A stretch of 64,000 nucleotides of DNA from Candidatus Lloydbacteria bacterium RIFCSPHIGHO2_02_FULL_50_18 (GCA_001821395.1 MHLM01000001.1:1-64000), one strand, 5' to 3'. Positions 9,748-45,191 are shown, counted from the first letter of the stretch. Program-made: numbers and translations. The notes: generated by a model from the sequence alone, not told the origin.

Positions 9748-9800
9748 TTTCAAAAAAGAAGAACCTTTCTTGTTCGCAGATATTTTTATATAATTGAGCG

Positions 9801-10781: not shown

Positions 10782-11834
10782 ATGTCGAATCTTCAGAATA
10801 TTTATACCGTCGAAAGCGTCACGGAGGGACATCCCGACAAAATGTGCGATCAGATATCCGATGCGATACTCGATGCCTGTCTGGCACAGGACCCCAAGAG
10901 TCGTGTTGCGATCGAAAGTTTCGGCGCACACGGACTGCTCGTAATCGGCGGTGAGCTTACGACGGACGCGTCGATCGATGCCAAAGCGATTGCAGAAGAA
11001 GTATATCGCGATATCGGCTACACCGATGAATTAGAAATTATCACGCGCATTGTGCAGCAGTCTCCCGATATTGCGATGGGAGTCGATCAGGATGGTGCGG
11101 GTGATCAGGGGATCATGTATGGTTATGCGACGAATGAGACCGAGGAATATCTACCGAGCGGCATCACGCTGGTGCACAAGCTGACAAGCGGGTTAAGCGC
11201 ACTCCGAAAGAGCGGCGAACTTGAGTGGCTCCGACCCGACGGAAAAGCACAGGTGACCATTGAGAACGGTAGAGTGCGCACGGTTCTCGTTTCCACACAG
11301 CATGCCGATACACTCACGCAGCAAGAGATCAGGGCGTCGATCATCGACCGTTTGATCCGACCGCTCGTCGGCGATGTTGGGCATATCGAAATATTGGTCA
11401 ATCCGACAGGACGGTTCGTGCAGGGCGGTTTTGAGGCGGATACCGGTCTTACCGGCAGGAAGCTCATGGTTGATACGTATGGGGGCCTTGTGGCGCACGG
11501 AGGGGGTGCATTTTCCGGAAAGGACGCTACCAAGGTTGATCGTTCTGCCGCTTATATGGCACGATACGTCGCAAAAAATCTTGTTGCCAATAAGTTCGCA
11601 AATGAGGCAACAGTGTCGGTGGCCTATGCGATCGGACACCCGGAACCGCTTATGGTCTCGGCGCGTAATGAGCGCGGTGAAGATTTGAGCGATGCGGTCA
11701 AAAAACGATTTGATTTTCGTCCGAAAGCGATTATTCAACAATTGAACTTGCGACGTCCGATCTATCGGCAAACTGCATCATACGGGCACTTCGGAAAGGC
11801 TGGGCTCCCGTGGGAAGACGTCATCGTAATGTAA
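10782..11834 (+). CDS. metK: S-adenosylmethionine synthetase (compact, 350 aa)
   Basis: GHPDKMCDQISDA, GAGDQG and GGGAFSGKDATKVDRS motifs. Confidence 0.95.
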   Translation: MSNLQNIYTVESVTEGHPDKMCDQISDAILDACLAQDPKSRVAIESFGAHGLLVIGGELTTDASIDAKAIAEEVYRDIGYTDELEIITRIVQQSPDIAMGVDQDGAGDQGIMYGYATNETEEYLPSGITLVHKLTSGLSALRKSGELEWLRPDGKAQVTIENGRVRTVLVSTQHADTLTQQEIRASIIDRLIRPLVGDVGHIEILVNPTGRFVQGGFEADTGLTGRKLMVDTYGGLVAHGGGAFSGKDATKVDRSAAYMARYVAKNLVANKFANEATVSVAYAIGHPEPLMVSARNERGEDLSDAVKKRFDFRPKAIIQQLNLRRPIYRQTASYGHFGKAGLPWEDVIVM

Positions 11835-12660: not shown

Positions 12661-14115
12661 TTAGAGCACTTGTTCCGCGAATGCCGCGAGCCGTGAGCGC
12701 TCGCAGTCCGGCAGCGTAATGTGCCCGCCGAACGGCCAACCTTTGAAACGATCAACCACATAGGTGAGACCCGAGCTGCCTTCCGTCAAATATGGCGTAT
12801 CGATCTGCGCCAGATTTCCGAGAAACACGATCTTCGTTCCGGGGCCGGCACGCGTGATAAGCGTTTTTGCCTGCTTCGGTGTGAGATTTTGCGCCTCATC
12901 GATGATGACGTATTTGTTGAGGAAGGTCCTGCCACGCATGAAGTTCATGGACTTGATCTTCACGCGGTCGCTCAGACTCTTGTTTGCGCGCACGTCAGTG
13001 GCGACACCCGATGCCTTCGCACTATGCATCTTGAGCAATGTCTCCGGATTTGAGTTCAGCACCTCCATATTGTCGGTGAGTGCACCCATCCACGGCCCCA
13101 TTTTTTCTTCTTCGGTGCCAGGGAGAAATCCGATATCTTCACCGACGGAAACGGTTGCCCGCGTCATGATGATGTCGTTTTTCCCTGCCAGCCCCGCTGC
13201 CAACGCGAGAAGTGTTTTCCCTGTGCCGGCAATACCAACTAGGCTGACGAAGTCGACGTCCGGATCCATGAGCAGATTGAACGCAAAATTCTGCTCACGA
13301 TTGCGTGCCAATATGCCCATCACCGCGTGTTCTTTTGATCCATAATCCGTCAGGACCCGAAGAGTTGCCGTGTCGTCAGAAGTCTCCGTCACGATCGCAT
13401 AAAAGGGCTGATCACCGCTCTCGTGGTAGACGAACTGATGCACCAGCATTTTTTCGCAGATCTTCCCTGTAATGGCACACTCGCGTCCTTTTTGGCTCCA
13501 CTCCACTTCGGTGGTATTCCAAAAATTTTTCGGCAATTCAAGCGCGCCGGTATGCAAGAGGTCGATGTCCTGAAGGACCTTGTCGTTTTTATAGTCTTCG
13601 ACCGGCAGGCCAAGAGCTCGAGCCTTCACGCGCATATTGATGTCATTAGACACCAAGACGACGTGGCGGTCGGGTTCGCGCTCACACAAAGCCTGCACTA
13701 CACCCAAGATCTGGTTATCGGCCTCTCCGTCCGGAAGTCCTTTTGGTAGCTTTACGTCAGCAAGATCTGTCTGGAAAAAAAGTTTTCCGGTCGCATCGAG
13801 ATGACCCGTGCTATTGAGAGGAAATCCCTTCGACATCGTAGCACTGTTGTGCTTAGCGATCTTTGACGACAAGGCATCAAGGTCGCGCATCACTCGGCGT
13901 ACGTTGCGTGCTTCTTCGGTCAGGCCGCGCTTGTGTCTGTCTAGTTCCTGAAGAATGATCATGGGGAGATAGACATCGTGTTCTTCAAAACGGAAGAGTG
14001 CTGACGGGTCATGCATGAGGACGTTCGTGTCGAGCACGAACAGACTCGTTTGCTTCAGCGCGGTGCGCTTAGGTGCAGCAGTGCGCTTTGTAGCCTTGCT
14101 TTTTTCTTCGGTCAT
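12661..14115 (-). CDS. PhoH2-type protein: N-terminal PIN domain fused to a PhoH-like P-loop ATPase
   Basis: LFVLDTNVLMHDP (PIN) followed by GIAGTGKTLLALAAG (Walker A) and YVIIDEAQNL (Walker B). Start at MTEEK is supported by GAGGAG 6 nt upstream; the ORF extends to 14154. Confidence 0.85.
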   Translation of the reverse strand: MTEEKSKATKRTAAPKRTALKQTSLFVLDTNVLMHDPSALFRFEEHDVYLPMIILQELDRHKRGLTEEARNVRRVMRDLDALSSKIAKHNSATMSKGFPLNSTGHLDATGKLFFQTDLADVKLPKGLPDGEADNQILGVVQALCEREPDRHVVLVSNDINMRVKARALGLPVEDYKNDKVLQDIDLLHTGALELPKNFWNTTEVEWSQKGRECAITGKICEKMLVHQFVYHESGDQPFYAIVTETSDDTATLRVLTDYGSKEHAVMGILARNREQNFAFNLLMDPDVDFVSLVGIAGTGKTLLALAAGLAGKNDIIMTRATVSVGEDIGFLPGTEEEKMGPWMGALTDNMEVLNSNPETLLKMHSAKASGVATDVRANKSLSDRVKIKSMNFMRGRTFLNKYVIIDEAQNLTPKQAKTLITRAGPGTKIVFLGNLAQIDTPYLTEGSSGLTYVVDRFKGWPFGGHITLPDCERSRLAAFAEQVL

Positions 14116-14231
14116 TTTGACTCCTCGATTGGTTGATGAAACGTACTTCCTCACTCAAACTACAACGATTTCATATTTACGCAAGCCCCATCTATGCTAC
14201 AATAGACGGGAAGTAGCATACTGCACTAATA

Positions 14232-18625: not shown

Positions 18626-21349
18626 CTATTTACAAGACAAGTCCTTTTCAAACAGCACCATGGAATGATCTTCCGGATCAGGAGATTCACTGAATCCTGC
18701 TCCCTTAAACACTTTACGCATTTGCGCATTTGCTCGTTCCGTAATGCCGGTCAATTTCACAATCTGATTCTTCATAGCCCAATCGACGCTCGCTTCCATA
18801 AGGTAGCTCGCGAGATGCTGCCCTTTGTGGTCAGTACGTGTAAAGAACGCAATTTCAAATTCGCCTGCATCGTTTGCACGAACAATGCGCGTCACGCTGA
18901 CTATTTCTCCCTTCTCGTTTTCAGCAACAAATGCCATATGATTGCGATAGTCGATATTGCAGCGCGGCGCGAGACGTTTATGGCTCTTGCGTGTTTCTAA
19001 AGATATCGCCGTATAGTAACGGTGATAGACATCCTCCTTGCTTACCTGTTCGTGAAAGAACGACATCTTACCTTCATCAGATGCATCTATCGGTCGAATG
19101 GTAATTGCGTCGCCATTTGCAAGATGCACGATATGCACAAATGCACCGGGGTAGGGGCGTATTGCAGGATTTCTCCCGACTTCATCAGGAGCAAATAACT
19201 CAATGCGCGCATCGATCGCACATACATCCTCTGGGCTTGCGAGTAATGGATTCATTTCGATTGACCGAACGAGCCCCGAAAGACTTGTCGCAACCTCAGA
19301 GAGTCGTACCCCTGCTTCTACAATGGCATCAATATTTGCTGCTTTAGCACCGCGTACACCTTTAAGAATTTTGAATATTCTTGTCTGCTCCATCAATTGA
19401 AGCATTTGCGCACTTGAGTGTTGATTGATACCCATTGCGGTGTCACCAAAATACTCAACGTGCGTGCCGCCCCGACCGAAGATCATAATCGGTCCAAAGT
19501 CCGGATCATTGGTAGTTCCAAGAAATATTTCATGAGCATCTTTGGTTTTCACCATCGATTGGATCGTTACACCACAGAATGAGTGTGCGCCGAGTTTGTC
19601 AGTGACCGACTTTTTGATCTCATGAAACGCTTTTCCAACGTCGAATGGATTGCGAAGATTTAGGTGTACACCAAATTCACTTTTGTGCGAAAGGGCGGCG
19701 TTCACACCGGGATATATTTCCGCATGTGCTTTCACCACAACAGGGTAACCGATATGACGCGAAGCTTCCATTGCTACTGCTTCAGAACGCGCAACACGAA
19801 TAACGTTTGTGGGTATCTGCGCCATACGCAGTATCTCTTTTGCCTCGTCCTCTGCGAGCAGCGTGCGACCTCCGTCACGAATTTCAAGGAGGAGTCGTCG
19901 CATTTCTTTGAGTGTTGCATCGCTAATGCGAGGGATAGCACGAGGAGTTTGATAGAGCACTTCATGTCTACGACGATACTCAGCAAGATGCCCGAGAATA
20001 CGTGCAGCAGTGTCTGGGTTTTGAAGCACAGGGATACTGGCTTCTTGAAGTAGTTTTTCTCCACCGCCGATAGACCATCCACCTGTCCAGACGACAAAGA
20101 CCGGTTTGCGAAATCCAACCGCACGTTGTTCGCTTACTGCCTGAATAATTCCTTTCGCAACTTCTTCAGGAGGTGACATGGCGGTAGGAACATACATGAT
20201 GATCACGGACTCAACGTTTTTGTCTGCGAGTACTGTCCGTACTGATTGGTAATACCGTTCACGCCCCGCATCACCAATGATGTCTACGGGATTCCCGTGT
20301 GACCAATTTGACGGCAAAAAAGCATCAAGTGCGGTCAGTGTTTCTGTGGTGAGTGCTACGGGTAAGAGTCCCGAAAGTGCAGCACGATCAGCTGCGATCA
20401 CCCCTGGTCCACCACCATTCGTGATGAAGGTATAACGATCAGATCTGGGGAGTTCCTGGTTAGCAACGATAGCAGTAGAAAACATTTCATCAAGCGAATC
20501 GACTCTGATCGCTTGTGTTCTGCGCAACGCCGCATCAAAGACTTTGTCGTTACCCGCAAGTGAGCCCGTATGTGTTGCCGCTGCTTTTGCAGCAGCCTCA
20601 CTTCGGCCCGGCTTGAAGACGACAACGAGCTTGTGTTCCGATACTTCGCGGAGTGCAGAAAGAAAACCTTCCGCATCAGCTCCAATACCTTCAACATACA
20701 AAAGAATCGCGTGGGTCTTGGGGTCAGACCCGAGATAGGAAAGATATTCTTTCCACGACAGATCAAAGGCATTGCCCATCGTGATCACTTTGTTGAGACC
20801 AACGCCAAGTCCACGTGCACGATCGACGAGCGCGACGGCTACGCCACCGCTCTGCGAAATGATTGAAACATGTCCAGGCGACGATATGCCCGTCAGTCCG
20901 AATGTAAGGTCAAGACCATTTTCCATGTTCATGAGCCCAAAGCAGTTCGGTCCAACAATGCGCGTATTACTCCCTGCGACCGCATCTTCAAGTTCTTTTT
21001 GAAGCTGATCGCCTTCTTTCGTGTGCACTTCACCAAAACCGGCGCTGATGATGAGCAAATATTTCACTCCACGCGTTGCGCATGATCGTGCAATATTTGG
21101 TACATATTGTGCCGCCGTCGTGATGACGACGAGCTCTGGAACATCGTCAAGTTCTTCTATCGAATGAACCGTACGCAATCCCACAATCGGCTGTGTTGCA
21201 TTGGGGTTGATCGCAATAATGCGATTGATAGGAAATCCTCCACGTGCCGCTCGTTGTGCAAGAACATTACCGAGTTTTCCGGGAGTGTCACTTGCGCCGA
21301 TAATGGCGACCGAGGATGGGTGAAATAACCCATACAATTTTGATCTCAT
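18626..21349 (-). CDS. Pat/YfiQ-type protein acetyltransferase: NDP-forming acyl-CoA synthetase (CoA-binding, ligase-CoA and ATP-grasp domains) fused to a C-terminal GNAT
   Basis: N-terminal CoA-binding Rossmann domain (VAIIGASDTPGKLGNV...ISAGFGE), central succinyl-CoA-synthetase-like and ATP-grasp regions, and a C-terminal ~130-aa GNAT-like domain. Start at MRSKLYG has AAGGAG 7 nt upstream. Confidence 0.85.
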   Translation of the reverse strand: MRSKLYGLFHPSSVAIIGASDTPGKLGNVLAQRAARGGFPINRIIAINPNATQPIVGLRTVHSIEELDDVPELVVITTAAQYVPNIARSCATRGVKYLLIISAGFGEVHTKEGDQLQKELEDAVAGSNTRIVGPNCFGLMNMENGLDLTFGLTGISSPGHVSIISQSGGVAVALVDRARGLGVGLNKVITMGNAFDLSWKEYLSYLGSDPKTHAILLYVEGIGADAEGFLSALREVSEHKLVVVFKPGRSEAAAKAAATHTGSLAGNDKVFDAALRRTQAIRVDSLDEMFSTAIVANQELPRSDRYTFITNGGGPGVIAADRAALSGLLPVALTTETLTALDAFLPSNWSHGNPVDIIGDAGRERYYQSVRTVLADKNVESVIIMYVPTAMSPPEEVAKGIIQAVSEQRAVGFRKPVFVVWTGGWSIGGGEKLLQEASIPVLQNPDTAARILGHLAEYRRRHEVLYQTPRAIPRISDATLKEMRRLLLEIRDGGRTLLAEDEAKEILRMAQIPTNVIRVARSEAVAMEASRHIGYPVVVKAHAEIYPGVNAALSHKSEFGVHLNLRNPFDVGKAFHEIKKSVTDKLGAHSFCGVTIQSMVKTKDAHEIFLGTTNDPDFGPIMIFGRGGTHVEYFGDTAMGINQHSSAQMLQLMEQTRIFKILKGVRGAKAANIDAIVEAGVRLSEVATSLSGLVRSIEMNPLLASPEDVCAIDARIELFAPDEVGRNPAIRPYPGAFVHIVHLANGDAITIRPIDASDEGKMSFFHEQVSKEDVYHRYYTAISLETRKSHKRLAPRCNIDYRNHMAFVAENEKGEIVSVTRIVRANDAGEFEIAFFTRTDHKGQHLASYLMEASVDWAMKNQIVKLTGITERANAQMRKVFKGAGFSESPDPEDHSMVLFEKDLSCK

Positions 21350-21591
21350 ACTATTCTCCTTGTGGTGCCCCAAAGTACAAAAGGGCTAGTTACAAAGTAC
21401 TTCTTGCTTCGATTTACCATATTTTTTAAAAAAAGCAACTGGCTATTTTTTAGTATTTAATTTCCTCTCCGAATAGGAATGCTCGTCCTTTGGCCTTCAA
21501 AAAACCGTGCGACACGATCATTATGAGGTCCGTCGATTCAATGTGGTTGTCGCGTTGTTAATAAGACCCATGATTGTTATAGTTACATGAC

Positions 21592-24500
21592 ATGTTCAGA
21601 ACACGTAAAGGTCGCTCTTCGTCACGTGGGATCGAGAGTCTTGCAAAAGAGCTCACGTTGACCGCACAACTTTCTTTCGACGAACGTCGGGCTACGATCT
21701 TCGCCCAACGATCAAGAAAAACACTCATTCGTACTCGCGCTGCATATCGCGACCTGTTGCAGCATCTTAATGAACGAGTACAGGCAACTCAGGGTATCGA
21801 ACTGCTTCTGGATAATTTCTATATCATTGAGAGTGCGTTGACCGAGCTGCTCTCGAGCTGGAAGGAAAAGATGACACTTCGTGTCCCTCAATCGCAGGAC
21901 GTCGACGGGGAAAAACAGCCACGTGTATATACGATCGCGCGCGCATTAACAAAGGAGGTGGATGCAAGATTTGACCGTGAAACGATTATTGAATTTCTCA
22001 GATCCTATCAAAAGAATACTCCTCTTTCGTTGCGGGAACTTGATATTTTTCCGGATATGTTGCGATTCGTGCTCATTGAAGAGGTGCTTCGGATCATCGA
22101 TGCGAGTCTTGCGGTGCTAAAGGAAAAGGCTGATGCGAATCGTTGGTACGAGCGCATCGTTGATGCAAGTCGACACAAAAATACTTCGGCTCGCTTGAGA
22201 AAGCTTACGGGTCTTCTTGCTGCAGAATATACCATCATTCCACAAATATTCGGTTTGCATCTGCTCCACCGCTTAGATCAGGCGGGAAAGGAGGGCGATA
22301 TCCGTATGGTAAGCAAGTGGCTTAAACTTTCGCTTTCAAAACAAGGAGTAAGCTATGCTCAGCTTTCAACGCTGAAATCCCATACGGAAAAAGTGCAGGC
22401 AGCCACGATGAGAAATGCGGTGACGAGTCTTCGTTATCTGTCTCAAGTACGATGGGATAAGGTCTCTCTGGAATTGAATATGGTCGATGCTGTCCTCTCC
22501 AAAGATCCTGTTGGCGCATTCGCGATGCTCACTGATGACGCGCGCTCTTTGTATCGCAGGACCATTGCGCGTATTAGTGACGGGACGGGAACACACGACA
22601 TCGAGGTCGCACGTGAAGCAGTACGTCTTGCGCGACAAGCAGTCGAAGTGGGAAATGACAAGACCATGCGTTCGCATCATGTGGGATATTATCTGCTTGA
22701 TAAGGGCGTCTTGGAGCTTGAACAGATGCTTGGATACGTACCGACATTCATGGAGAGTGTGCGCATGATCGTCTTGAAGCACAATACGAATGCGTACCTC
22801 GGATTCATTTGTGTTGTCACGCTTCTCTCGACCGGTGTATTTCTTGCACAGAGTGGCGCGTTCGCGTTCTCCGCACTTCTTTTTTTTGCGATGTTCATGC
22901 TGGGACTACTGTTGATGTCAGAAGTGGCAACGGTATTCGCTCACTTTATGTTTACAAGGATACTTATTCCGAAACAATTGCCCGCACTCGATCTTGCGCT
23001 CGGTATTGGTGACGCTCGTCGAACGGTGGTTGTCGTGCCTTCGATGTTTCGGAGTGCCGCCTCTGCACAGAAGATACTTCGAAGAATGGAGACGAATTTT
23101 GTGGGGAATAGTGACACAAATATTTTTTATGCTTTTTTGATGGATTTCCGTGATGCGAAGTCTGAAGAAGTGCCGCAAGACAACAAGCGTGTCACCGAGA
23201 TGAGGGAGGGGATCATGCTGCTCAATGCAAAGTATCCGTCAGCCATACCTCGTTTTGCATTGTTCTATCGCAAACGAAAATGGAATACCGCCGAAGGTAC
23301 ATTTATGGGCTGGGAAAGGAAGCGTGGGAAACTCAAGGAATTCAATGATCTATTGCGTGGTAAGGAAACATCGTACATCGATGACGCACAAAAGTGTGCA
23401 GCAGCTTATGGAACCGTCCGTTACGTGATCACGCTCGACGAAGACACGGAGCTCGTAAGAGATTCAGCGCGATCGCTTATTGGAACGATCGACCATCCGC
23501 TCAATCGCCCCGTAGTAGATCCGGTCAAAATGGTCGTTACAGAGGGCTATGGAATTGTTCAACCGCGAAGCGCTTTAAGATTCGAGGAAGGAGGAGCATC
23601 ACTCTTTTCTCGATTATTTGGCAGTTACCCGGGTATTGAGTCCTACTCATCGTTTGTTTCTGACCTGCATCAGGACCTGTTCGGAGAGGGTATATTTCAC
23701 GGAAAAGGTATTTACGATATCGATGCGTTTAATACAACGATGTCGGAACGTATCCCGGAGAACACCGTGCTTTCGCATGACCTGCTCGAAGGCTTGTACG
23801 CTCGAGTCGGCATCGCAAGTAGTGCGCACATTTTTGAGGGTTTTCCGTCAAATTATCGGGAGTATATACAGCGGTCTCATCGCTGGATACGTGGAGACTG
23901 GCAGATTATTACATGGCTATTTGACCGTGGTGCGGTATTTTCACGGATCGGTCGATATCGTATCTTTGATAATCTTCGACGGAGTTTGATCCCCATAGCC
24001 GCAGTGCTTGCGGTGATCTTTTCTTTATTTTCTGCGGCGGAGCTATCATCGTGGAGCATTGTCGCACTGCTTGCGATCGGTTCGGGTCAATTGATATCCG
24101 CAGTATTGCGCATCACCGAACGAACTACGAATTGGAAACGGCCGGTAAGTATCGTCGCGAGATTCGAATCAATGATCACTAGCTCGGTTGTGGCGCTCGT
24201 TAAAACATTATTTCTTGGCGCATTCGCACTCCATAGCGCAATGATCACTATTGATGCGATCGTGAGAAGTATGTGGCGACTCTTTTTTTCAAAAAGGCAT
24301 CTTCTTGAGTGGCAGACCGCATATGAAGCAGCTCTTGAGCGGAAAGATTCGATCAAGGGCTTCATACGATTCATGTGGCGCAGTGTGTGCCTCTCTCTCG
24401 CGCTCGTTTATCTCTTGTTCCACGGTGGAGGCATACAGGACCCCGTCGTGGTCATGTGGGTTCTTGCATGGCTCTTTGCTCCGTATTGCGCGGCGAGGAT

Positions 24501-27500
24501 CAGTGCAGAGCTGAAGAACAGGTATGTGCTTTCGGATACCGAACGTTTATATCTGCGTAAGGTTGCAGCACGGACATACTGGTTCTTTATTGACCTTGCA
24601 ACAAAGGAAGATAGCTGGCTTGTGCCGGATCATCTTCAGGAAGAACCACCAAGTAAGCGCCATTCCCATGGGCTCGGTATCTCCCCGACAAATCTTGGTA
24701 TGTACCTTTTGTCACTTTCGGGAGGACGAGCATTGGGACTCTCGTCGCTTTCAGCATACACAGATCGGATAACGCGCGCCTTTGCAAGTATGGAACGCAT
24801 GGTGCGTTACAACGGGCATTTTTATAATTGGTATGAACTGAAGCAGCTCACACCGCTTGCTCCCCGCTACGTATCAAGTGTTGATAGTGCAAATCTTGCA
24901 TTGTCACTACTCGCAGTGAAGGGTGCCCTCATTGATGCCACCGATGCACCGATTATTAGCGATGCCATGTTTCAAGGGCTCGATGCGCAACTCCACGTAC
25001 TCCTCGAGTCATGCGAACAAGCGATCACAATCAAGACGTCCGAACGTCACGAACGAAAATTACTTGGGGAGATCAGGTCGGCTGCTACAGAATCGATCAT
25101 GCTGATCCAGAAAGTGGCGAACGAAGCATTGACGCCTCGAGGAAGTGATCTTGTTTGGACTGGGGTCATTCATCATGCGGTACGTACGAGGAATGCACTC
25201 GAGGAATTGCGTCTCGAGGGGAAAAGCGAGCGTTTTGAGGAAATATTCCTCGCTGCGAGACATATTGAATCTGTCGCTGATGCCTATCGGGATAATGTTG
25301 CGCGATATCTCGGACACGCGGTCATTTCTGCGGTTTCCGCTTTAGCTCATGACCCCAAGCTTCATGCGCTGTATCTCCAGCTTTCGTTACTGTTGCAGCG
25401 GATACCAAGTGTGAATGATCTTGCTGATGGAGTAGTTCGGCGGGAGATCGAATCAGTCGGAATTCTTGATGCGGTTCTGCTTTCTCAGCTTGAAACAGAA
25501 GAAAAAAAGCGAGTTCGTGCGTGGTACGCACAGATCTTAGAAAGACTTGCCGAATCTGAAAAAAGAGCATCCGAGGCGCAGTCTTCATTGATCGGGTCTG
25601 CAAAGAGCGCGGCTGCTTATGTAGAGGAAATGAATTTTGAATTTCTTTATAATAAAGAGCGCGGTCTATTCCATATCGGATATAATTGCTCTACCGAAAA
25701 ACTCGATGAAGCATTTTATGATCTGCTCGCTTCAGAAGCGAATTCGACAAGTATCATCGGAATTGCTAAGCGTGATGTCCCTCAGGCACATTGGGCATAT
25801 CTCGGCAGAAAGTTGATCCAGAGCGGGAACGGCGACGTACTCGTTGCTTCATGGGCGGGATCGTTATTTGAGTATTTGGGAACGCTATTGTATTTCAACG
25901 TCCCGAGGGAAAGTTTTTGGGGTGTCTCTGCTCAGCGGGCTATTGCGGCACATCAGGCTTTTGCGCAGAAATATCATATACCGTGGGGGATGGGTGAGTC
26001 TGCCTCTTCGCGGCAAGATGTTGCACGGAATTATCATTACCAAGCATTCGGAGAACCATCCCTTGGTTTTAAGCGTGATCTTTCCGAATCGATCGTTGTC
26101 GCTCCGTATACAAGTGCTCTCGCACTTTCGATGGCACCAAAAGAAGCACTCGCAAATTTTCAACAGCTTGAGCGCGCCGGGGCATTTGGTCGCTACGGTT
26201 TCTATGATGCGATTGATTTTACGAAGAAAAGGGCAAAAGAATACCGTGAATCTTCGGGGGTACCTGCACGAATATATTATGCGCATCATCAGGGATTCAT
26301 ACTTTCATCGATCATCAATGTGCTCAATGATGGTTGGGTTCGTACGATGGTTGCTAAGGATCCTCAAATGGAAGTGTCAACACAGTTGTTTGAGGAGAAG
26401 ATGCCGGAAGACGTTCGCGGTGAGAAGATCAGCCCTATCGTCCCCGAAATACCTGTTGCTCAAACAGTATCAACGTTTGCAGCATCTCCTCGTCGGTATC
26501 TTCCGTGGCGTACCAAAGAAGCAACCTCAATGTTTCTTTCAAATGAAGATTATTTTACCCGAATCACCGCGACGGGTGCCGGAGAGAGCTCCATCGGCGA
26601 TGTATTGATCACTCGAGCATCAAGCGATATGTTGCGCGAGTCTGTCGGCACCTTCTTCTATGTCTTTGATGCGGCACGAGACAAGATGTGGTCACCAACG
26701 TACATGCCGACGCGAGTCGCGGGTGATAAGCATACTGTTTCCTTCGGTGAACAGATCATTCAATTCAAGAAAACGCATGAGGAGATCGACTCATCGTTGA
26801 TCGTGACCCCCCTTATTCAAGATCATGGAGAGTTGCGCGAGCTTTCACTTACCAACACAAGAGAAAAAGAGACCGTGCTTACCTTCGGAGTATGCGCAGA
26901 ACTGTCACTTTCGCGAAGACAGGATGAATCATCACACCCGAACTATGAGCAGCTCTTCGTTTCTACTGAAACGCATTGGGGGGGGCGTGCCATCATTGCT
27001 TCGCGCCCCGACCCGCATGATCGTAATCACCATATTGTAGCCGGTTTTCTTCTCGTCGGAGACGGTATGCTTGATGACGTACATGCGATAAGAGAGAAAA
27101 GCCTTTTCTTGGGTTCCCCGGAGCAAAAAGATGATCCGCCAATATTGCGTGACCTCTCACGTGCGAACAAGGAGGGTCCTGCTCACACGCTCGACAGTGT
27201 CGCCGCATTCGTCGGTCGTGTTCGATTGCGGCCGAAAGCAACCACCCGTGTCACATTGGTGACAATCGTAGGGAAGTCAAAAGAAGAGGTATTTGCACGT
27301 CTAAAGATCTATCGCAATTACAAGTCTGTACTGGGTGTCATAGGTGGCGCCGACCGTGCAGGGGGGCAACTGCTGAGCGAGCTCAGCATCACGGCACTTC
27401 AGGCTGAAGCCTACGGTACCCTGGCTTCAATTGCTATCGCTCGTGAAGTAAAAAGCGGAAAGGAATCAAACTCCAATGCTCGTCCTTGGGTCTCAGCTCT

Positions 27501-30363
27501 TTGGAAAATGAGCATATCAGGAAGTCGTCCTATCATTTTGTGCCCGGTGACGGGAGCAACGGATATTCCTATGGTACGACAGCTACTTAGCTGCCATTCG
27601 TATTTCGTCAAAAAAGGCATCGTGGTCGACCTCGTGATCTTTAATGAACATTCCGGCGGATATCTGAAGACCTTTGAAGATGAAATAGACTTTTTACTTA
27701 ATATGCATCACGCGCAGAATGGAAATACTCTATCTACGGTATTTCACGTGCATGCAGAGCAATTAAGTGACCTTGAGCAAGATGCCGTCATGAGTGCGGC
27801 AAGCGTGTGCATAGACACGAAAAAGGGTTCGATCGTGGATGCAACCGTTTCATTGCGACGAAGCGCGACGCGAAAATATCCCCAGAAACTCAGCATACGA
27901 TCCAAGCGCACCGAGAGTATTCCCACACAGCCGCAACAGGGGAATACAAACGCCTTGCAGTTCTTTAACGGGATCGGTGGTTATGATGAAGCAAAAAAGG
28001 AGTATGTTGTCTTCCGCACGAAAGAAACACGCCCGGTTCGCCCGTGGTCGCACATTGTTGCAAACGCGCATGTCGGTTTTCTTGCGACCGACAGGGGGAC
28101 ATCTTTTACGTGGTCACGAAATAGTTACGATAACAAACTGACCATACCGTATAATGACCCTCTTTCTGCGCATACCGGCGAAGCGATATATCTCCGAGAT
28201 GAGGACACTGGCGCATGGATCAGTCCGTTCCCGGTCGTGAACAAAGAGGCGCTCGACTGTGAGGTGCGCTTTGGTGAAGGGTATTGCACGTATATTACAC
28301 ATGCACCCGGCATCACGATCAACATGACCATGTATGTGGGGGTAGACGAATCAGTTAAATATTACCGCGTTGAAATGACCAATACGAGCAAGCGTCAGAA
28401 GTCATTTGCGCTTTTTGGATATTTCGAACTGTTAATGGGAAGTCTTGAACGGGAAACAAAAAAACATCTTTCTTTCCGCGTCACCCCAGAAAATATTTTG
28501 GTGGCAACACAAAACTATCGTCATCAATTTTTGGACAGCAGGATCTTTGTCGGGATCGTGGGGGGCGCAGATGAATTTACCGTCAGTCGGGAGGAATTTC
28601 TGGGAAGATATGGAATGATCAGTGCGCCTGCAGCGCTGACACGAAAGGGGCTTTCAAGTGAGATCCATGGTGACGAAGAATCAGCTACTGCGCTGAAGAA
28701 AGATATCACGATTGCTCCGGGGGAACAAAAGGTGGAAGTATTCTTTCTGGGAGAGACGGATGAGGAGAAGCTGCCGAACCTGCTCCAGCGATTACAGGAT
28801 TCCAGTCACTCCGAACAAGCATTCACGATGACGAAACAAAAGTGGAACGCACTTCCATTACCGAAATTCACGCTACCGGACGCGACACTTTCTGCGCTTG
28901 CCAATCAGTTTCTTCCATACCAAACACTTTCCTCGCGTATCTATGCACGGCTTGGATTCTACCAAATTGGCGGTGCGATCGGCTTTCGCGATCAGTTGCA
29001 GGATGCGCTATCGATACTCTGGTATGATCCATCGTGGGTACGTGAGCACATTCTCGTTTCTGCCGCGCATCAGTTCCGAGAGGGTGACGTGCTTTCGTGG
29101 TGGCAGCCGCATAATAATTTCGGTGCTCGGACGCGACTTTCCGACCCGCATCTTTGGTTGCCGCATGTCACACTTCGCTATGTGCGATTTACCGGCGACG
29201 AAGCGATCCTCGACGAAATGGTGCCATATTTGTCAGGAGAAATTCCCGATAAAGCTGATCGACCGAATGTCGTGGGTATTTTTGAGTCCAGCAACGAAGC
29301 AACCACGCTTTATGAGCACCTGATACGTGCAGTCGAGCGTTCACTGACCGCAGGAGTCCACGGATTGCCGCTCATGTGCGCAGCAGACTGGAATGATGGG
29401 ATGAACCGGGTTGGCTCAGAGGGTGAAGGAGAGAGCGTGTGGCTTGCGTGGTTTCTCGTTTCCGTGCTCGATGAGATGAGCCTACTTACTGAAAAGCGCG
29501 GTGACCCATCGCGCGCAGAGCGTTACCGCGCTCACTCAAGAGGCTATCGGGACGCATTGAAAAAATTTGGGTGGGGTGGAAAATGGTATCGACGAGCGTA
29601 CACCGACAGCGGTGCAATGGTTGGAGCGAGCAGCGCAAAGGAGTCCCGCCTTGATTCAATAACGCAGTCGTGGGCATATTTTGCAGACGGAGATACCAAA
29701 GAAAGCAGAGAAGCATTGCGCTCCGCAAAACAGGAGCTCTCTATACATGATGGCCATGTGCCTCTTTTTTGGCCTCCATCCTCGCGGGCCGTCCTCGACT
29801 TGGGCACTGTTTCAGACTACCCACCCGGCGTGCGGGAGAACGCCGCGCAGTATAATCATGCTGCTCTTTGGCTTGCACAAGCACTTTTTGCCTCAGGAGA
29901 CCCCGATGCGGGAATGATGGTTGTTGATGCGGTGAATCCGTTCAAGCGAAGTGAGACAAAAGAAAAAGCGCTGGTTTATCAGGGAGAACCTTACGTGGTT
30001 GCCGCTGAAGTGTATTCTTCCCCCACGTACCCCGGACAAGCTGGTTGGACCTGGTATACCGCATCTGCAGGGGTGCTTTACCGTACGATACTAGAATATA
30101 TGCTCGGTGTGAAACACGAAGGAAACACACTGACATTCTCCCCGTCATTCCCAACGTCGTGGCACAACGCTTCGTTGGCATTACCGTACGGTGGGTCACT
30201 CTATAGCATAACATTTGAGGTGAAGGGTAGAGATGCGCCCAAGGAAGTTCTCGTTGACGGAATTCATGTGAAAAACAACGCGGTTACGCTTGTCGATGAT
30301 AAGACAGCGCATAAGGTCCATGTTTCTTTTGGAAGGACCTCGGGGAAAGACTCGTCGTCATAG
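21592..30363 (+). CDS. cgs: Cyclic beta-1,2-glucan synthase (Cgs/NdvB/ChvB-type): membrane GT84 glycosyltransferase domain plus C-terminal GH94 glucan phosphorylase-like domain, 2923 aa
   Basis: TM-flanked GT domain containing YVITLDEDTEL...QRSHRWIRGDWQII (D-x-D and QxxRW-like motifs), and a large C-terminal alpha-barrel region with CAADWNDGMNRVG (GH94 catalytic signature). Length and architecture match cyclic glucan synthases. Confidence 0.88.
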   Translation: MFRTRKGRSSSRGIESLAKELTLTAQLSFDERRATIFAQRSRKTLIRTRAAYRDLLQHLNERVQATQGIELLLDNFYIIESALTELLSSWKEKMTLRVPQSQDVDGEKQPRVYTIARALTKEVDARFDRETIIEFLRSYQKNTPLSLRELDIFPDMLRFVLIEEVLRIIDASLAVLKEKADANRWYERIVDASRHKNTSARLRKLTGLLAAEYTIIPQIFGLHLLHRLDQAGKEGDIRMVSKWLKLSLSKQGVSYAQLSTLKSHTEKVQAATMRNAVTSLRYLSQVRWDKVSLELNMVDAVLSKDPVGAFAMLTDDARSLYRRTIARISDGTGTHDIEVAREAVRLARQAVEVGNDKTMRSHHVGYYLLDKGVLELEQMLGYVPTFMESVRMIVLKHNTNAYLGFICVVTLLSTGVFLAQSGAFAFSALLFFAMFMLGLLLMSEVATVFAHFMFTRILIPKQLPALDLALGIGDARRTVVVVPSMFRSAASAQKILRRMETNFVGNSDTNIFYAFLMDFRDAKSEEVPQDNKRVTEMREGIMLLNAKYPSAIPRFALFYRKRKWNTAEGTFMGWERKRGKLKEFNDLLRGKETSYIDDAQKCAAAYGTVRYVITLDEDTELVRDSARSLIGTIDHPLNRPVVDPVKMVVTEGYGIVQPRSALRFEEGGASLFSRLFGSYPGIESYSSFVSDLHQDLFGEGIFHGKGIYDIDAFNTTMSERIPENTVLSHDLLEGLYARVGIASSAHIFEGFPSNYREYIQRSHRWIRGDWQIITWLFDRGAVFSRIGRYRIFDNLRRSLIPIAAVLAVIFSLFSAAELSSWSIVALLAIGSGQLISAVLRITERTTNWKRPVSIVARFESMITSSVVALVKTLFLGAFALHSAMITIDAIVRSMWRLFFSKRHLLEWQTAYEAALERKDSIKGFIRFMWRSVCLSLALVYLLFHGGGIQDPVVVMWVLAWLFAPYCAARISAELKNRYVLSDTERLYLRKVAARTYWFFIDLATKEDSWLVPDHLQEEPPSKRHSHGLGISPTNLGMYLLSLSGGRALGLSSLSAYTDRITRAFASMERMVRYNGHFYNWYELKQLTPLAPRYVSSVDSANLALSLLAVKGALIDATDAPIISDAMFQGLDAQLHVLLESCEQAITIKTSERHERKLLGEIRSAATESIMLIQKVANEALTPRGSDLVWTGVIHHAVRTRNALEELRLEGKSERFEEIFLAARHIESVADAYRDNVARYLGHAVISAVSALAHDPKLHALYLQLSLLLQRIPSVNDLADGVVRREIESVGILDAVLLSQLETEEKKRVRAWYAQILERLAESEKRASEAQSSLIGSAKSAAAYVEEMNFEFLYNKERGLFHIGYNCSTEKLDEAFYDLLASEANSTSIIGIAKRDVPQAHWAYLGRKLIQSGNGDVLVASWAGSLFEYLGTLLYFNVPRESFWGVSAQRAIAAHQAFAQKYHIPWGMGESASSRQDVARNYHYQAFGEPSLGFKRDLSESIVVAPYTSALALSMAPKEALANFQQLERAGAFGRYGFYDAIDFTKKRAKEYRESSGVPARIYYAHHQGFILSSIINVLNDGWVRTMVAKDPQMEVSTQLFEEKMPEDVRGEKISPIVPEIPVAQTVSTFAASPRRYLPWRTKEATSMFLSNEDYFTRITATGAGESSIGDVLITRASSDMLRESVGTFFYVFDAARDKMWSPTYMPTRVAGDKHTVSFGEQIIQFKKTHEEIDSSLIVTPLIQDHGELRELSLTNTREKETVLTFGVCAELSLSRRQDESSHPNYEQLFVSTETHWGGRAIIASRPDPHDRNHHIVAGFLLVGDGMLDDVHAIREKSLFLGSPEQKDDPPILRDLSRANKEGPAHTLDSVAAFVGRVRLRPKATTRVTLVTIVGKSKEEVFARLKIYRNYKSVLGVIGGADRAGGQLLSELSITALQAEAYGTLASIAIAREVKSGKESNSNARPWVSALWKMSISGSRPIILCPVTGATDIPMVRQLLSCHSYFVKKGIVVDLVIFNEHSGGYLKTFEDEIDFLLNMHHAQNGNTLSTVFHVHAEQLSDLEQDAVMSAASVCIDTKKGSIVDATVSLRRSATRKYPQKLSIRSKRTESIPTQPQQGNTNALQFFNGIGGYDEAKKEYVVFRTKETRPVRPWSHIVANAHVGFLATDRGTSFTWSRNSYDNKLTIPYNDPLSAHTGEAIYLRDEDTGAWISPFPVVNKEALDCEVRFGEGYCTYITHAPGITINMTMYVGVDESVKYYRVEMTNTSKRQKSFALFGYFELLMGSLERETKKHLSFRVTPENILVATQNYRHQFLDSRIFVGIVGGADEFTVSREEFLGRYGMISAPAALTRKGLSSEIHGDEESATALKKDITIAPGEQKVEVFFLGETDEEKLPNLLQRLQDSSHSEQAFTMTKQKWNALPLPKFTLPDATLSALANQFLPYQTLSSRIYARLGFYQIGGAIGFRDQLQDALSILWYDPSWVREHILVSAAHQFREGDVLSWWQPHNNFGARTRLSDPHLWLPHVTLRYVRFTGDEAILDEMVPYLSGEIPDKADRPNVVGIFESSNEATTLYEHLIRAVERSLTAGVHGLPLMCAADWNDGMNRVGSEGEGESVWLAWFLVSVLDEMSLLTEKRGDPSRAERYRAHSRGYRDALKKFGWGGKWYRRAYTDSGAMVGASSAKESRLDSITQSWAYFADGDTKESREALRSAKQELSIHDGHVPLFWPPSSRAVLDLGTVSDYPPGVRENAAQYNHAALWLAQALFASGDPDAGMMVVDAVNPFKRSETKEKALVYQGEPYVVAAEVYSSPTYPGQAGWTWYTASAGVLYRTILEYMLGVKHEGNTLTFSPSFPTSWHNASLALPYGGSLYSITFEVKGRDAPKEVLVDGIHVKNNAVTLVDDKTAHKVHVSFGRTSGKDSSS

Positions 30364-30562: not shown

Positions 30563-31105
30563 TTATTTATCGATGGGGCTCCTGCATGGGAGCGAAAGGA
30601 GTTTTACGAAGATCGGATTTGTTTCGTCATTCAGACCAAACTCTTTCGCATAAAGCAGCTCCGTTTTGTATGCCTCATGCTCTATGTGCTGCATACAGGC
30701 GAACGAGACCTTGGTCGGTGATTGCTCCTGCAGGTGATGCACAAGCTCGTGCACAAACGTGATTTTGTCTTCTTCAACGAGCATCGGATCAAACCCCAGA
30801 CCGACCCACATCACGCCCTTGTCATACGCTGCGCGCACATTGAGCGTACATTCGGATGTTTCGATGCCTTTGTCGCGGCAGATCATGTTTTTAAGGAATT
30901 CCTTGTCGACAAATCGCATTTCTGGATGCCCGACTTCCTTAATGCTGTATCGGGTATTTATCCCGAGCCAGTTCACGATGTCATCGTAAAGCGCGGTAAA
31001 GCGGGGTTCATCGAAGCCATACCTTACGGTTTCTTTCGCGAATGCCGGTGCCCCCAAAAAAAGACTGAGGGTAACGATCAACGCCATGATATTTCGGATT
31101 TTCAT
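30563..31105 (-). CDS. Secreted small protein with HExxH motif (putative zinc metallopeptidase-like)
   Basis: Signal peptide MKIRNIMALIVTLSLFLGAPAFA and FVHELVHHLQE (HExxH). No family recognised. Confidence 0.6.
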   Translation of the reverse strand: MKIRNIMALIVTLSLFLGAPAFAKETVRYGFDEPRFTALYDDIVNWLGINTRYSIKEVGHPEMRFVDKEFLKNMICRDKGIETSECTLNVRAAYDKGVMWVGLGFDPMLVEEDKITFVHELVHHLQEQSPTKVSFACMQHIEHEAYKTELLYAKEFGLNDETNPIFVKLLSLPCRSPIDK

Positions 31106-35449: not shown

Positions 35450-36484
35450 ATGGGCAACGTCAGCATATCGTTCAAACCAAAAGTGGTCACAAAGCATTTC
35501 CTCGGAGTGTTGCCTCGCCGTGCCCAGGACGTTATCACCAAACGCTACGGTCTTGGTGCTGAAACAAAGAAAATGACACTCGAATCTATCGGTGAGAATT
35601 ACGGCATCACTCGTGAGCGTGTTCGTCAGATCGAAAATTTTGCATTGACGACGATCCGTAAATCCGACGCATTTAAGGAGGAGATGCCAACCTTCGATGA
35701 ATTGCGCAAAACCATGCTTTCAATGGGCTCCATCGTTCCCGAATCTGATTTTTTGGCGAGCGTGTCGAGTGATAAGTCAAATCAAAATCATATTCATTTC
35801 CTCCTGGTCTTGGGTGAACTTTTCACGAAACACAAGGAAGATGATGATTTCTCTCATCGCTGGAGCACAGACCCTGAGACTGCGGTCAAGGTTCATGATT
35901 CGTTGCGCAAGCTTTATGCTTCTCTTTCTGACGATGATCTTATCGAAGAATCAAAGATGATTGAGCGTTTCTTGAGCCATCTTAAGGAGGTTTCAGAAGA
36001 GTACAAGAACGAAGAGATATTGCGCCGTTGGCTCTCGCTGTCAAAGAAGATGGGCAAGAACCCGCTTGGTGAATGGGGTATGGCTTCATCGCCGAATGTT
36101 TCGGCGCGCGGAGTTCGCGATTACGCATTTCTGGTGTTACGAAAAAATGGTTCACCGATGCATTTCACTGAAGTGGCAAAAGCGATCGGTGCGCACTTTG
36201 ATAAGCAGGCACACATCGCAACGACACACAACGAACTAATCAAAGATAAGCGTTTCGTGCTTGTCGGGCGTGGACTCTATGCACTCTCTGAGTGGGGATA
36301 CTCGACCGGTGTTGTCCGTGATGTGATCGGTGAGATCATCAAGAAGAGCGGTCCGCTCACTCGCGAAGAGGTTGTCGACAAAGTGATGCGCGAACGTTAT
36401 GTGAAGCCCAACACCATTCTCGTGAATCTGCAGAATCCGAAATATTTCAAAAAGAATAAAGAAGGGAAGTACTCGCTTGTGTAG
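35450..36484 (+). CDS. Sigma-70 region-4-like HTH protein fused to a C-terminal HARE-HTH (RNAP delta-like) domain
   Basis: N-terminal LPRRAQDVITKRYGLGAETKKMTLESIGENYGITRERVRQIENFAL is a region-4-like HTH. C-terminal MHFTEVAKAIGA...HNELIKDKRFVLVGRGLYALSEWGY is HARE-HTH-like. Confidence 0.75.
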   Translation: MGNVSISFKPKVVTKHFLGVLPRRAQDVITKRYGLGAETKKMTLESIGENYGITRERVRQIENFALTTIRKSDAFKEEMPTFDELRKTMLSMGSIVPESDFLASVSSDKSNQNHIHFLLVLGELFTKHKEDDDFSHRWSTDPETAVKVHDSLRKLYASLSDDDLIEESKMIERFLSHLKEVSEEYKNEEILRRWLSLSKKMGKNPLGEWGMASSPNVSARGVRDYAFLVLRKNGSPMHFTEVAKAIGAHFDKQAHIATTHNELIKDKRFVLVGRGLYALSEWGYSTGVVRDVIGEIIKKSGPLTREEVVDKVMRERYVKPNTILVNLQNPKYFKKNKEGKYSLV

Positions 36485-40833: not shown

Positions 40834-41922
40834 ATGGCGCAGAAGATCCGAAAAGTCTTTGTGGGGATGAGCGGAGGAGTTGATTCCTCTGTGTCTGCTG
40901 CTCTGCTGCAAAGAGAAGGTTACGAGGTCGTTGGTGTTTTTATCAAGGTATGGCAAGCGGATTTTTTGCCGTGCACATGGAGAGAAGAGCGGCGTGATGC
41001 GATGCGCGCAGCCGCGCACCTTGGTATACCTTTGCTGACACTTGATTTGGAAAAGGAATACAAAGAGGGAGTTGTTGATTACATGATAAGGGAATACGGG
41101 GAGGGTCGTGTTCCTAATCCCGACGTCATGTGTAACAAACATGTGAAGTTCGGAGCATTTCTTGATTTTGCAAAAAAGAACGGCGCAGATGCTGTTGCGA
41201 CCGGACATTACGCTCGTGTAGAGCAAGACGACGTTGGGATGTTCCGCTTGTATAAGGGGGTTGACCAAGAAAAAGATCAATCATATTTCTTATGGACGCT
41301 CGATCAGGAGCAGCTTGCTCATGTCTTGTTTCCCATAGGGCATTTGGAGAAAAGTGAAGTACGACGACGAGCTCGAGAATTCGGTCTCTTGAATGCGCAA
41401 AAGAAAGATAGTCAGGGCCTCTGTTTTATGGGTACGATCGATATGAAGGATTTTCTCAAGCACTACCTGCATGCCGCTTCCGGTGCGGTTCTCGATACGA
41501 ACGGCGAGATCATCGGTACGCATGAAGGTGCGATGCTGTACACGATCGGGCAACGGCATGGATTTTTTACGACGAAACAGAGTGCGCATGAGTCGCCGTT
41601 ATTTGTTGTGGAGAAAGACATACAAAAAAACACCATCACTGTTGCTGCTGAGATGAACGTCGACTCAACACCGAATCATAGAGGCATCATACTATTGAAA
41701 GATCATAATTGGATCCCTGTTTCTCCCGACGTAGGGACACAAGTCGCTTGCGTTGCGCGTATTCGCTACAGAGGGGCGCTTCAACCCGCGGTCGTTCAAC
41801 GGGTCTCTATCGATCGGGTTTCGGTCACTCTATCGGTAAACGATGAATTTATCGCTGCGGGTCAGTCGATGGTATTTTACGAGGAGGATAGGTGTTTGGG
41901 AGGAGGGGTCATTGAGCGGTAG
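40834..41922 (+). CDS. mnmA: tRNA-specific 2-thiouridylase MnmA
   Basis: PP-loop SGGVDSSV and the NPDVMCN catalytic cysteine motif. Confidence 0.95.
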   Translation: MAQKIRKVFVGMSGGVDSSVSAALLQREGYEVVGVFIKVWQADFLPCTWREERRDAMRAAAHLGIPLLTLDLEKEYKEGVVDYMIREYGEGRVPNPDVMCNKHVKFGAFLDFAKKNGADAVATGHYARVEQDDVGMFRLYKGVDQEKDQSYFLWTLDQEQLAHVLFPIGHLEKSEVRRRAREFGLLNAQKKDSQGLCFMGTIDMKDFLKHYLHAASGAVLDTNGEIIGTHEGAMLYTIGQRHGFFTTKQSAHESPLFVVEKDIQKNTITVAAEMNVDSTPNHRGIILLKDHNWIPVSPDVGTQVACVARIRYRGALQPAVVQRVSIDRVSVTLSVNDEFIAAGQSMVFYEEDRCLGGGVIER

Positions 41923-41962
41923 GTTCTTGCGGAAGAGGTTGCGCGTGCGGTATCATTCACCA

Positions 41963-43823: not shown

Positions 43824-44341
43824 ATATGGAATTATTTGCAGTATCGCAGTGGGAGATCATTCTTCGCCTCACTGTTGCGGTTGTGCTTGGGCTTGCGGTG
43901 GGTGCTGAACGTTCACGCGTCGGAAAACGAGCAGGGATGCGCACCTATGCGCTCGTATGTCTTGGGGCCGCACTCTTTATTGTTATTGCGGGGATGGTTT
44001 CGTTCCAGTATGCGAATACCTTTGTGTTCGACCCGCTGCGCGTCGCTTCCCAGGTCGTCGTTGGTATCGGGTTTCTGGGTGCAGGGATCATTTATGTTCA
44101 GCGTCAGGTTCTTACCGGACTTACGACAGCGGCAGGTCTTTGGGTAGTTGCGGGAGTCGGTGCGGCATGCGGATACGGACTTTATGTTGTCGCAGCCTAC
44201 GTCACATTTCTGACATTAGTGATCTTTGAGGGTCTCTGGTATGTCGAGGAGCGTTTTATTCGTATCGCTCGAACAGATGTGGAAGAGGATTTTATTCAAA
44301 GTGCTACGCATAATCGGCCTCACCATGAAGAAGAAAGTTAG
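43824..44341 (+). CDS. mgtC: MgtC/SapB-family membrane protein
   Basis: LTTAAGLWVVAGVGAACGYG signature and 4-5 TM helices. ORF 43763 trimmed to MELFAV. Confidence 0.8.
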
Positions 44342-45191
44342 AAAAGCGGTCATTGCGGTTGCCGGAAGCGGCACGCGTTTTCTGCCGGCGACAAAAGCTC
44401 AGCCAAAGGAGATGCTTCCTATCGTCGACAAACCGATCGTTCAATATGTTGTTGAAGAATTGGTCAGCGCGGGTATCACGGATATCATTCTTGTTACAAA
44501 GTGGGACAAAAAAACGCTTGAGGACCACTTTGATCGCTCGATCGAGCTTGAGCATTCACTTGAAGAGGCGGGAAAGTTAAAGTTGCTCCATGACATTCGC
44601 AAGATCTCATCAATGGCGAACTTCATTTATGTTCGTCAAAAAGGTCCCTATGGGAATGGTACGCCCATTCTCTCCGCCGCGAGCTTGTTGAACGATGAGC
44701 CGTTCGTATTCGCTTGGGGTGACGACCTTGTTCTGTCGAAAACTTCATTCACAAAACAGCTTATCGAAAATTATGAGATCAATGCGTGCCCCGTTATCGG
44801 AGTGCAGAAAGTTGCAAAGGATCATGTGAATCGATACGGTATCGTCAAATTGAAGAAGGGTACTCGTGAGATGGAGGATGTGATAGAAAAACCAAAGATC
44901 GAGGATGCGCCGTCCCAGTTGGCTCAGTTCGGGAGAATGATCCTTACTCCGGAGATCATACACATCTTACAAAAGACCAAACTCGGAAAAGGCGGTGAGC
45001 TATGGGTTACCGACGCCATCAGCGAATATATCAAGCAGGGGGGTAAGTTCATGGTCGAAGAGGTGAAAGATGGAAAGTGGCTTACGACCGGAGACCCGCT
45101 TAACTATCTAAAGGCCATGGTGGAGTATGCGATCGTTCGTGATGATATCGGTGATGAATTCAAGGCATTTCTGAGGGACCTTCATCTCTAG
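44324..45191 (+). CDS. galU: UTP--glucose-1-phosphate uridylyltransferase
   Basis: KAVIAVAGSGTRFLPATKAQPKEMLPIVDKP N-terminal signature. ORF 44226 trimmed to MKKKVRK. Confidence 0.9.

Follow-up and report, generated by a model that had tools for sequence, protein, structure and literature searches.

A predicted synthase of cyclic beta-1,2-glucan encoded in Lloydbacteria and related Parcubacteria

A giant open reading frame and its domains

The DNA analysed here (the window) is a stretch of 64,000 nucleotides from Candidatus Lloydbacteria bacterium RIFCSPHIGHO2_02_FULL_50_18, a member of the Parcubacteria group of Patescibacteria (NCBI taxonomy). It contains an open reading frame (ORF), here called cgs, that very probably encodes a canonical synthase of cyclic beta-1,2-glucan (Cgs). 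A preliminary description of this DNA, made from the sequence alone, had pointed to a giant ORF of 2,923 amino acids covering about 14% of the window; a single ORF was found exactly there, taking up 13.7%. The protein is 100% identical to OGZ05110.1/OGZ10262.1 (UniRef100_A0A1G2CWN6), recorded at NCBI for a Candidatus Lloydbacteria MAG whose name starts with RIFCSPHIGHO2_01_FULL as 'hypothetical protein A2845_02190', an annotation that is corrected here to Cgs. A run of 2,923 stop-free codons at ~49% GC cannot have arisen by chance. The gene is a single-gene unit, its upstream neighbour being divergent and its downstream neighbour convergent. The ORF and the predicted parts of its product are as follows.

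21592..30363, plus strand: cgs, ORF of the predicted synthase of cyclic beta-1,2-glucan; ATG start, 2,923 amino acids, 8,772 nt (ORF listing)
21592..22788, plus strand: N-terminal domain (NTD), putative cytoplasmic scaffold, residues 1-399; aligns with the NTD of Agrobacterium tumefaciens (At) Cgs from residue 44
22789..22953, plus strand: transmembrane (TM) helices 1-2, residues 400-454; Kyte-Doolittle segments 400-424 and 415-454
22954..23973, plus strand: GT84 glycosyltransferase, residues ~455-794; residue-by-residue alignment to 8rf0
23974..24501, plus strand: second membrane region, TM3-6 and an interface stretch, residues 795-970; hydropathy
24517..26451, plus strand: cyclase (CY), GH189, residues 976-1620; Pfam PF10091, 8wy1 match, AlphaFold/Foldseek
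25000-25629, plus strand: helical insert of 209 amino acids, residues 1137-1346, part of the CY domain
26452..30360, plus strand: GH94 phosphorylase (GP) region, residues 1621-2923; Pfam, alignment to 8rf9 and to cellobiose phosphorylases

The integrity of the locus was examined on several contigs. The identical protein was recorded on 11 contigs, the largest of 256 kb, and an independently assembled ENA contig (189,799 bp) was 100% identical in DNA over cgs and 1 kb on either side, so that the chimeric misassembly considered in the preliminary description did not materialize. The composition of cgs is native to the window (GC 0.494, GC3 0.485, lowest codon-usage distance of all), and a recent horizontal transfer was discarded on these grounds. 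The window also carries housekeeping genes (ATP synthase, metK, LeuRS, AlaRS, a MurC-like ligase, YceG, MnmA, S4, RpoA and GrpE-DnaK-DnaJ), and the named top matches of its RpoA were only Lloydbacteria, Parcubacteria and Paceibacterota.

The protein aligned end to end with the cryo-EM structures 8rf0/8rf9 of At Cgs (1,424 bits against the PDB sequences), in two HMMER stretches that span residues 44-1137 and 1346-2890. NTD, TM, GT84, TM, cyclase and GH94 follow one another collinearly on a single polypeptide, whose length lies within the ~2,800-3,000 amino acids looked for in a Cgs, and all domain lengths were normal when compared with 52 homologues from other phyla; the length of the NTD is kept across clades. 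Hydropathy placed two hydrophobic segments on the N-terminal side of GT84 and another four to five on its C-terminal side (795-821, 821-842, 860-891, 924-943 and 952-970), where the six helices of At Cgs predict them. The second membrane region measured 181 amino acids against a median of 179 in other phyla. All soluble domains were assumed, from homology, to lie on the cytoplasmic side. The Cgs/NdvB/ChvB architecture proposed in the preliminary description is upheld by the full-length match to At Cgs, except that its list of domains had omitted the central GH189 cyclase (PF10091), the domain that closes the ring.

This cyclase was recognized by Pfam as Glycoamylase (PF10091) at residues 1376-1586 and matched the cyclization domain of Thermoanaerobacter italicus (Ti), 8wy1, with E = 1e-87. 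An AlphaFold model of residues 976-1620 (pLDDT 93, pTM 0.93) had 8wy1 as its best Foldseek match (E = 3e-38, TM 0.81/0.90), followed by At Cgs (8rfe, 8rf9, 8rf0) and then by the GH144 and GH162 beta-1,2-glucanases. Its helical insert is longer than the family median of 168 amino acids, the range in other phyla being 24-239. The C-terminal 800 amino acids matched cellobiose phosphorylases over their full length (E = 1e-65), and Pfam reported the GH94 families PF06165 (289 bits in two stretches) and PF17167, the catalytic domain (291 bits at 2428-2839). The GP region accordingly consists of beta-supersandwich domains (best match 2150-2387) and a catalytic (alpha/alpha)6 domain at 2428-2839. Its earlier assignment to GH94 holds, and the sequence motifs named with it were all located: D-x-D as D-E-D at residues 616-618 (within TLDEDT, 614-619), QRxxRW as QRSHRW at 760-765, and DWNDGMN at 2599-2605.

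Residues that have been tested functionally in the At and Ti enzymes (PMC10901819; PMC10834661) were mapped onto the protein through segment alignments, with the offsets (19 residues between 8rf9 and 8rf0; 1,003 for 8wy1) verified against the numbering of the papers. The set comprised At D527, R586, D624, D626, Y694, D739, R773, W774, R776, S1101, D1104, E1300, D2393 and D2528, together with Ti E1356 (equivalent to At E1300), E1400, E1442 and H1536/H1537. All 18 of these experimentally important residues are present. In GT84 they are D518, R576, D616/D618 (the DxD), D730, R764-W765 and R767, corresponding to the UDP-binding At D527, D624 and D626, the catalytic base D739, R773-W774 and R586/R776. 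The predicted glucosylation site is the primer tyrosine Y685 (GIESY), which aligns with At Y694 (GIDPY694) in the IF1-homology loop; a tyrosine occupied this position in every one of 78 aligned sequences. In the cyclase S1095 and D1098 are kept, as are the acid/base E1382 (Ti E1356), E1427 (Ti E1400), the nucleophile E1469 (Ti E1442) and H1565/H1566 (Ti H1536/H1537). GH94 retains D2467 in GFRDQLQD (At D2393) and the catalytic acid D2602 of the DWNDGMN motif (At D2528). Throughout the 78-sequence alignment, made up of 26 members of the clade described below and 52 others, the 18 positions showed no variation other than one D-to-E change, among the GT84 residues, and one gap, and no clade-specific insertion or deletion of at least 8 columns was detected. 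Judged from its sequence, the Cgs of this window is almost certainly functional.

The closest known system is At Cgs/ChvB (8RF0, 8RF9, 8RFE; PMC10901819), and Brucella Cgs and Rhizobium NdvB may by extension be counted with it. Domain order and sizes are the same, and the mutagenesis-tested GT84, CY and GP residues and the tyrosine primer site of At Cgs are all conserved. With proteobacterial homologues such as Rhizobium NdvB the protein shares only ~30-33% identity overall, a value that falls to 22% over the NTD and rises to ~38-39% over the catalytic cores. The CY insert, in contrast, is only ~120 amino acids long in At, and the present host differs from At in being a monoderm bacterium of the candidate phyla radiation (CPR) without periplasm, with no chvA-type exporter adjoining the gene. 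The cyclization domain of the T. italicus enzyme (GH189, 8WY1; PMC10834661), which has been characterized as an isolated domain only, has the same fold with the catalytic residues kept, at a structure-based identity of 29%. Stand-alone GH94 phosphorylases (cellobiose, chitobiose and 1,2-beta-oligoglucan phosphorylases) share the catalytic aspartate motif, but these are soluble catabolic enzymes, whereas here GH94 is one domain of a 2,923-residue membrane synthase. T. italicus is a Gram-positive-type bacterium (Bacillota) and would be a precedent for Cgs in single-membrane bacteria. OpgH/MdoH, which makes linear or branched osmoregulated periplasmic glucans, is likewise a membrane-bound, UDP-glucose-using enzyme of GT2 type, but is without cyclase or GH94 domain; membership of that family was rejected (NF003962, 17 bits against a cut-off of 328). 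Among the NCBIfam models no Cgs model matched, and the MdoH match was meaningless.

Relatives in Parcubacteria and other phyla

The closest genome matches of the protein, at 64-66% identity, came from another Lloydbacteria metagenome-assembled genome (MAG), a Patescibacteria MAG and an unclassified MAG. All matches named to phyla other than Patescibacteria (Chloroflexota, Bacteroidota, Bdellovibrionota, Clostridia, Paenibacillus, Pseudomonadota, Acidobacteriota and others) lay at 29-35%. A collection of 5.8 billion proteins yielded a graded series of full-length relatives at 46-66% identity, including Wolfebacteria GW2011_GWC2_39_22 and a 'Patescibacteria group bacterium', and four further full-length relatives at 35-37%.

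A neighbour-joining tree was calculated from the 78 sequences (2,713 columns, 100 bootstraps). In this tree 22 closer sequences formed a clade with 100% bootstrap, which the four more distant relatives (P0021-24) joined, again at 100%, to give a clade of 26. Its named members are all Parcubacteria/Patescibacteria (Lloyd-, Wolfe- and Taylorbacteria), and some members are unnamed; in the sister group P0021-24 one 90% cluster bears a name, Candidatus Taylorbacteria, and the rest are assigned to Parcubacteria solely through their clustering with it. To homologues of any other origin the members of this clade show an identity of only ~33%. Beyond its limits, the sequence nearest in the tree was that of a Clostridia MAG (L061; 100% bootstrap); this affinity may reflect long-branch attraction, and no conclusion on origin is drawn from it. 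The clade comprises more than 25 distinct, full-length and intact ORFs that share 36-68% identity with the protein of the window, which implies long-term purifying selection. In a census with the Cgs-specific segment from GT84 to cyclase as query (E <= 1e-30), the family comprised 3,434 representatives (50% identity clusters), of which ~12 group with this clade.

The surroundings of cgs were syntenic between two Wolfebacteria-type genomes whose Cgs proteins are 74% identical, which fits vertical descent inside that lineage. Between lineages no synteny was found around the gene. When the 56 ORFs of the window were compared by tblastn with the three closest loci, cgs alone matched, and the gene tables of seven more contexts revealed no recurrent partner. 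A conserved gene neighbourhood was therefore rejected, and scattered genes for type IV pili, major facilitator superfamily transporters and mechanosensitive channels were judged to stand there by chance.

Individual loci showed features of their own. In the sister clade (L086, P0021) cgs is flanked by genes for a PMM/HAD-type phosphatase or mutase, a GT2 and a cupin-type glucose-6-phosphate isomerase (7898-9948 and 18976-19680), possibly a local sugar-activation cluster, which the other loci examined lack. A Wolfebacteria-type locus (L087, P0019) has two GH130 phosphorylase-like genes and a mannose-6-phosphate isomerase gene downstream of cgs (19078-23213), an insertion relative to the otherwise syntenic L081/L082. 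Mechanosensitive channel genes were seen within 5 kb downstream of cgs in L083 (MscL, 22848-23249) and L088 (MS_channel, 23142-23828); they could be a hint of an osmotic role, but their position is probably due to chance.

Predicted mechanism, export and role of the glucan

The mechanism of this family is already known, although it was solved only in 2024 (PMC10901819; PMC10834661), and the enzyme type is not new. With the At and Ti enzymes as models, Cgs would be held in the cell membrane by some six helices, and its catalytic domains would all face the cytoplasm. GT84, binding UDP through D518, D616 and D618 and using D730 as base, would glucosylate Tyr685 from UDP-glucose and go on to elongate a beta-1,2 chain. 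The C-terminal GH94 domain (D2602) would shorten over-long chains with phosphate, giving glucose-1-phosphate, and the GH189 cyclase (E1469, E1382) would transfer the chain onto itself, so that a ring is formed and the primer regenerated. The ring size (a degree of polymerization of ~17-25 glucoses), like the activity and the fate of the product, we infer by analogy. The following gene is likely to encode the enzyme that supplies UDP-glucose for Cgs.

44325..45191, plus strand: GalU-like UTP-glucose-1-phosphate uridylyltransferase; Pfam NTP_transferase

The galU gene reported in the preliminary description at a distance of 14 kb from cgs is real, except that its in-frame ATG is at 44325 and not at 44324; it does not share an operon with cgs.

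Several points weigh against the assignment of a canonical Cgs with its classical pathway. The best NCBIfam match of the GalU-like protein (TIGR01099, galU) scored 291 bits, under the cut-off of 326.8. Pfam Glyco_trans_2_3 (GT2) reached 25.6 bits at residues 611-827, under its gathering cut-off of 27 bits; the GT84 region nevertheless aligns unambiguously with the solved structure. Enzymatic activity is assigned to the whole clade by homology. Export and modification genes of the cgt/cgm type, which the preliminary description expected to be sought elsewhere, did not come to light: neither a Cgt/ChvA/NdvA-type exporter nor a modification gene (Cgm) was found, be it in the 64 kb of the window or, for nine related loci, at a distance of up to 10 kb from cgs. 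Finally, Patescibacteria have been described as monoderm (PMC11665869), so that a classical periplasmic osmoprotectant role would be without an obvious compartment. The proteobacterial, periplasmic framing given to the gene at first can therefore not be kept, the host being a Candidatus Lloydbacteria and the family being spread over many phyla.

At Cgs itself has no export channel and depends on a separate ABC transporter, Cgt (PMC10901819). When the window and 89 loci were scanned for Walker A plus LSGGQ, no fused ABC exporter was found beside cgs in any phylum, ~80 of the loci belonging to other phyla. This indicates that adjacency of the exporter is not a trait of the family and that its absence here is uninformative. 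Since the membrane domain of Cgs has no channel, the ring would be exported by a separate transporter or kept inside the cell.

An active Cgs homologue with an altered product, i.e. a linear beta-1,2-glucan, a ring of another size or a cytoplasmic polymer, would suit a cell without periplasm. Such a product would agree with the monoderm host, with the lack of an exporter near cgs, with the low identity of the clade to outside homologues and with a CY insert of 209 amino acids where the median elsewhere is 168. It is nonetheless improbable: in the cyclase the nucleophile, the acid/base and the residues supporting them are invariant, as are the GH94 aspartate and the primer tyrosine, the insert falls within the range found in other phyla, and in the 80 loci from those phyla exporters do not lie beside cgs either. 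Moreover, the CY fold matches that of the T. italicus domain, which makes rings in vitro by itself (PMC10834661). Still less credible is that cgs is a decaying or catalytically dead relic, or a mere structural scaffold. Genome reduction in CPR bacteria often leaves remnants, and in the Patescibacteria MAG UBA6023 (L004, 9890-18795) cgs is interrupted by an assembly frameshift or as a pseudogene, with a longest ORF of 2,040 amino acids; this split was, however, seen just once, in a draft MAG, MAGs of other phyla contain comparable breaks (L024, L079), and both the window and more than 25 relatives have an unbroken ORF, with the catalytic residues all retained. That the gene is foreign to the CPR organism can be set aside as the least probable reading: although Cgs is best known from Proteobacteria, CPR genomes are metagenome bins and a biosynthetic gene as long as 8.8 kb is unusual for a streamlined genome, misassembly, contamination (including mis-binning) and recent transfer from an ordinary bacterium are very unlikely because cgs stands amid housekeeping genes (ATP synthase, LeuRS, AlaRS, RpoA, S4, DnaK) with a Lloydbacteria/Parcubacteria-like RpoA, on large contigs, in an identical independent assembly and with native composition, and because its 100%-bootstrap clade carries Parcubacteria/Patescibacteria names only and includes the Wolfebacteria-type synteny.

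With a canonical Cgs as the preferred reading, the role of its glucan may be considered. Cyclic beta-1,2-glucans are established factors of host interaction and osmoadaptation in Brucella, Agrobacterium and Rhizobium. The genomes of Parcubacteria measure about one megabase, and a dependence of these bacteria on host cells is presumed. The earlier idea of an envelope or host-interaction polymer is reasonable as a conjecture. Outside Proteobacteria, Cgs homologues are found among others in Clostridium, Paenibacillus and Thermoanaerobacter, which are Gram-positive-type genera; we know of no role for the glucan in them. Our best guess, which is speculation, would be a released or wall-associated glucan that aids life in low-osmolarity groundwater and/or contact with a host cell, osmoadaptation and host contact being equally open. 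It seems unlikely, though worth stating, that the glucan is a secreted symbiosis factor with the host cell as its target, for instance a cyclodextrin-like carrier that would extract or shuttle membrane lipids of the host or other hydrophobic molecules, compounds beyond the synthetic capacity of CPR bacteria. The cyclic glucan of Brucella has been reported to act on cholesterol-rich lipid rafts. If such a symbiosis factor existed, some Parcubacteria (Lloyd-, Wolfe- and Taylorbacteria) would share with Brucella, Agrobacterium and Rhizobium a molecular tool for life on another cell.

A search of the literature library that paired Parcubacteria with glucan synthase returned no paper, and broader searches likewise gave nothing that treats Cgs there; one paper on glacier MAGs lists Cgs in a Patescibacteria MAG (g_UBA4729) in passing, as an osmotic-stress gene. 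An intact and strongly conserved cgs in several Parcubacteria lineages is notable in view of their small genomes, the lack of a periplasm and their presumed host dependence. With it, a concrete candidate for a molecule of the envelope or of host contact is at hand in bacteria about whose cell biology little is understood. The value of the finding lies in the CPR host and the corrected label and not in the mechanism, the family being very large and present in many phyla.

Surroundings of cgs and other features of the window

Upstream, cgs is separated by a gap of 218 bp from the gene on the opposite strand, and one promoter-like site was noted in this gap as weak evidence.

21555..21583, plus strand: promoter-like site TTGTTA-17-TATAGT with TG, ending 8 nt before the cgs ATG

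Consensus scans for promoters and terminators gave no excess over shuffled sequence (9 promoter-like sites found against 11.6 expected), and no clear Shine-Dalgarno sequence was seen in the region upstream of cgs. The divergent gene (18626-21373, minus strand) encodes a 915-residue protein in which a region resembling NDP-forming acetyl-CoA synthetase (CoA-binding, Succ_CoA_lig and ATP-grasp domains) is fused to a C-terminal GNAT domain, the architecture of Pat/YfiQ-type protein lysine acetyltransferases. The convergent gene (30563-31105, minus strand) encodes a protein of 180 amino acids whose N-terminus resembles a signal peptide and whose HExxH motif stands at residue 119; a terminator-like hairpin comes after the gene at 30552-30531. 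This is the secreted HExxH protein of the preliminary description; the protein had no Pfam or NCBIfam match, and its gene was not beside cgs in related loci. The CAP-domain protein and the FKBP mentioned along with it were identified by domain search at 8695-9747 and 41843-42442, respectively. The former (plus strand; cysteine-rich secretory protein family) has about four predicted membrane segments. None of the other secreted proteins of the window was consistently linked to cgs when the related loci were compared.

Elsewhere in the window, an amino-acid dehydrogenase is encoded at 62340-63434 (plus strand), with ScyB (tryptophan dehydrogenase) as its best NCBIfam match at 240 bits against a cut-off of 600. 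A PIN domain is fused to PhoH in a PhoH2-like protein (12661-14154, minus strand), and an ATP-cone is fused to an Mrr_cat restriction-endonuclease-like domain at 42899-43750 (plus strand). The 344-residue protein encoded at 35450-36484 (plus strand) combines Sigma-70 region 4 with a HARE-HTH domain, an unusual pairing. A SAM-I riboswitch at 10482-10586 (plus strand; 58.3 bits, over the Rfam gathering score) lies directly upstream of metK (10782-11834).

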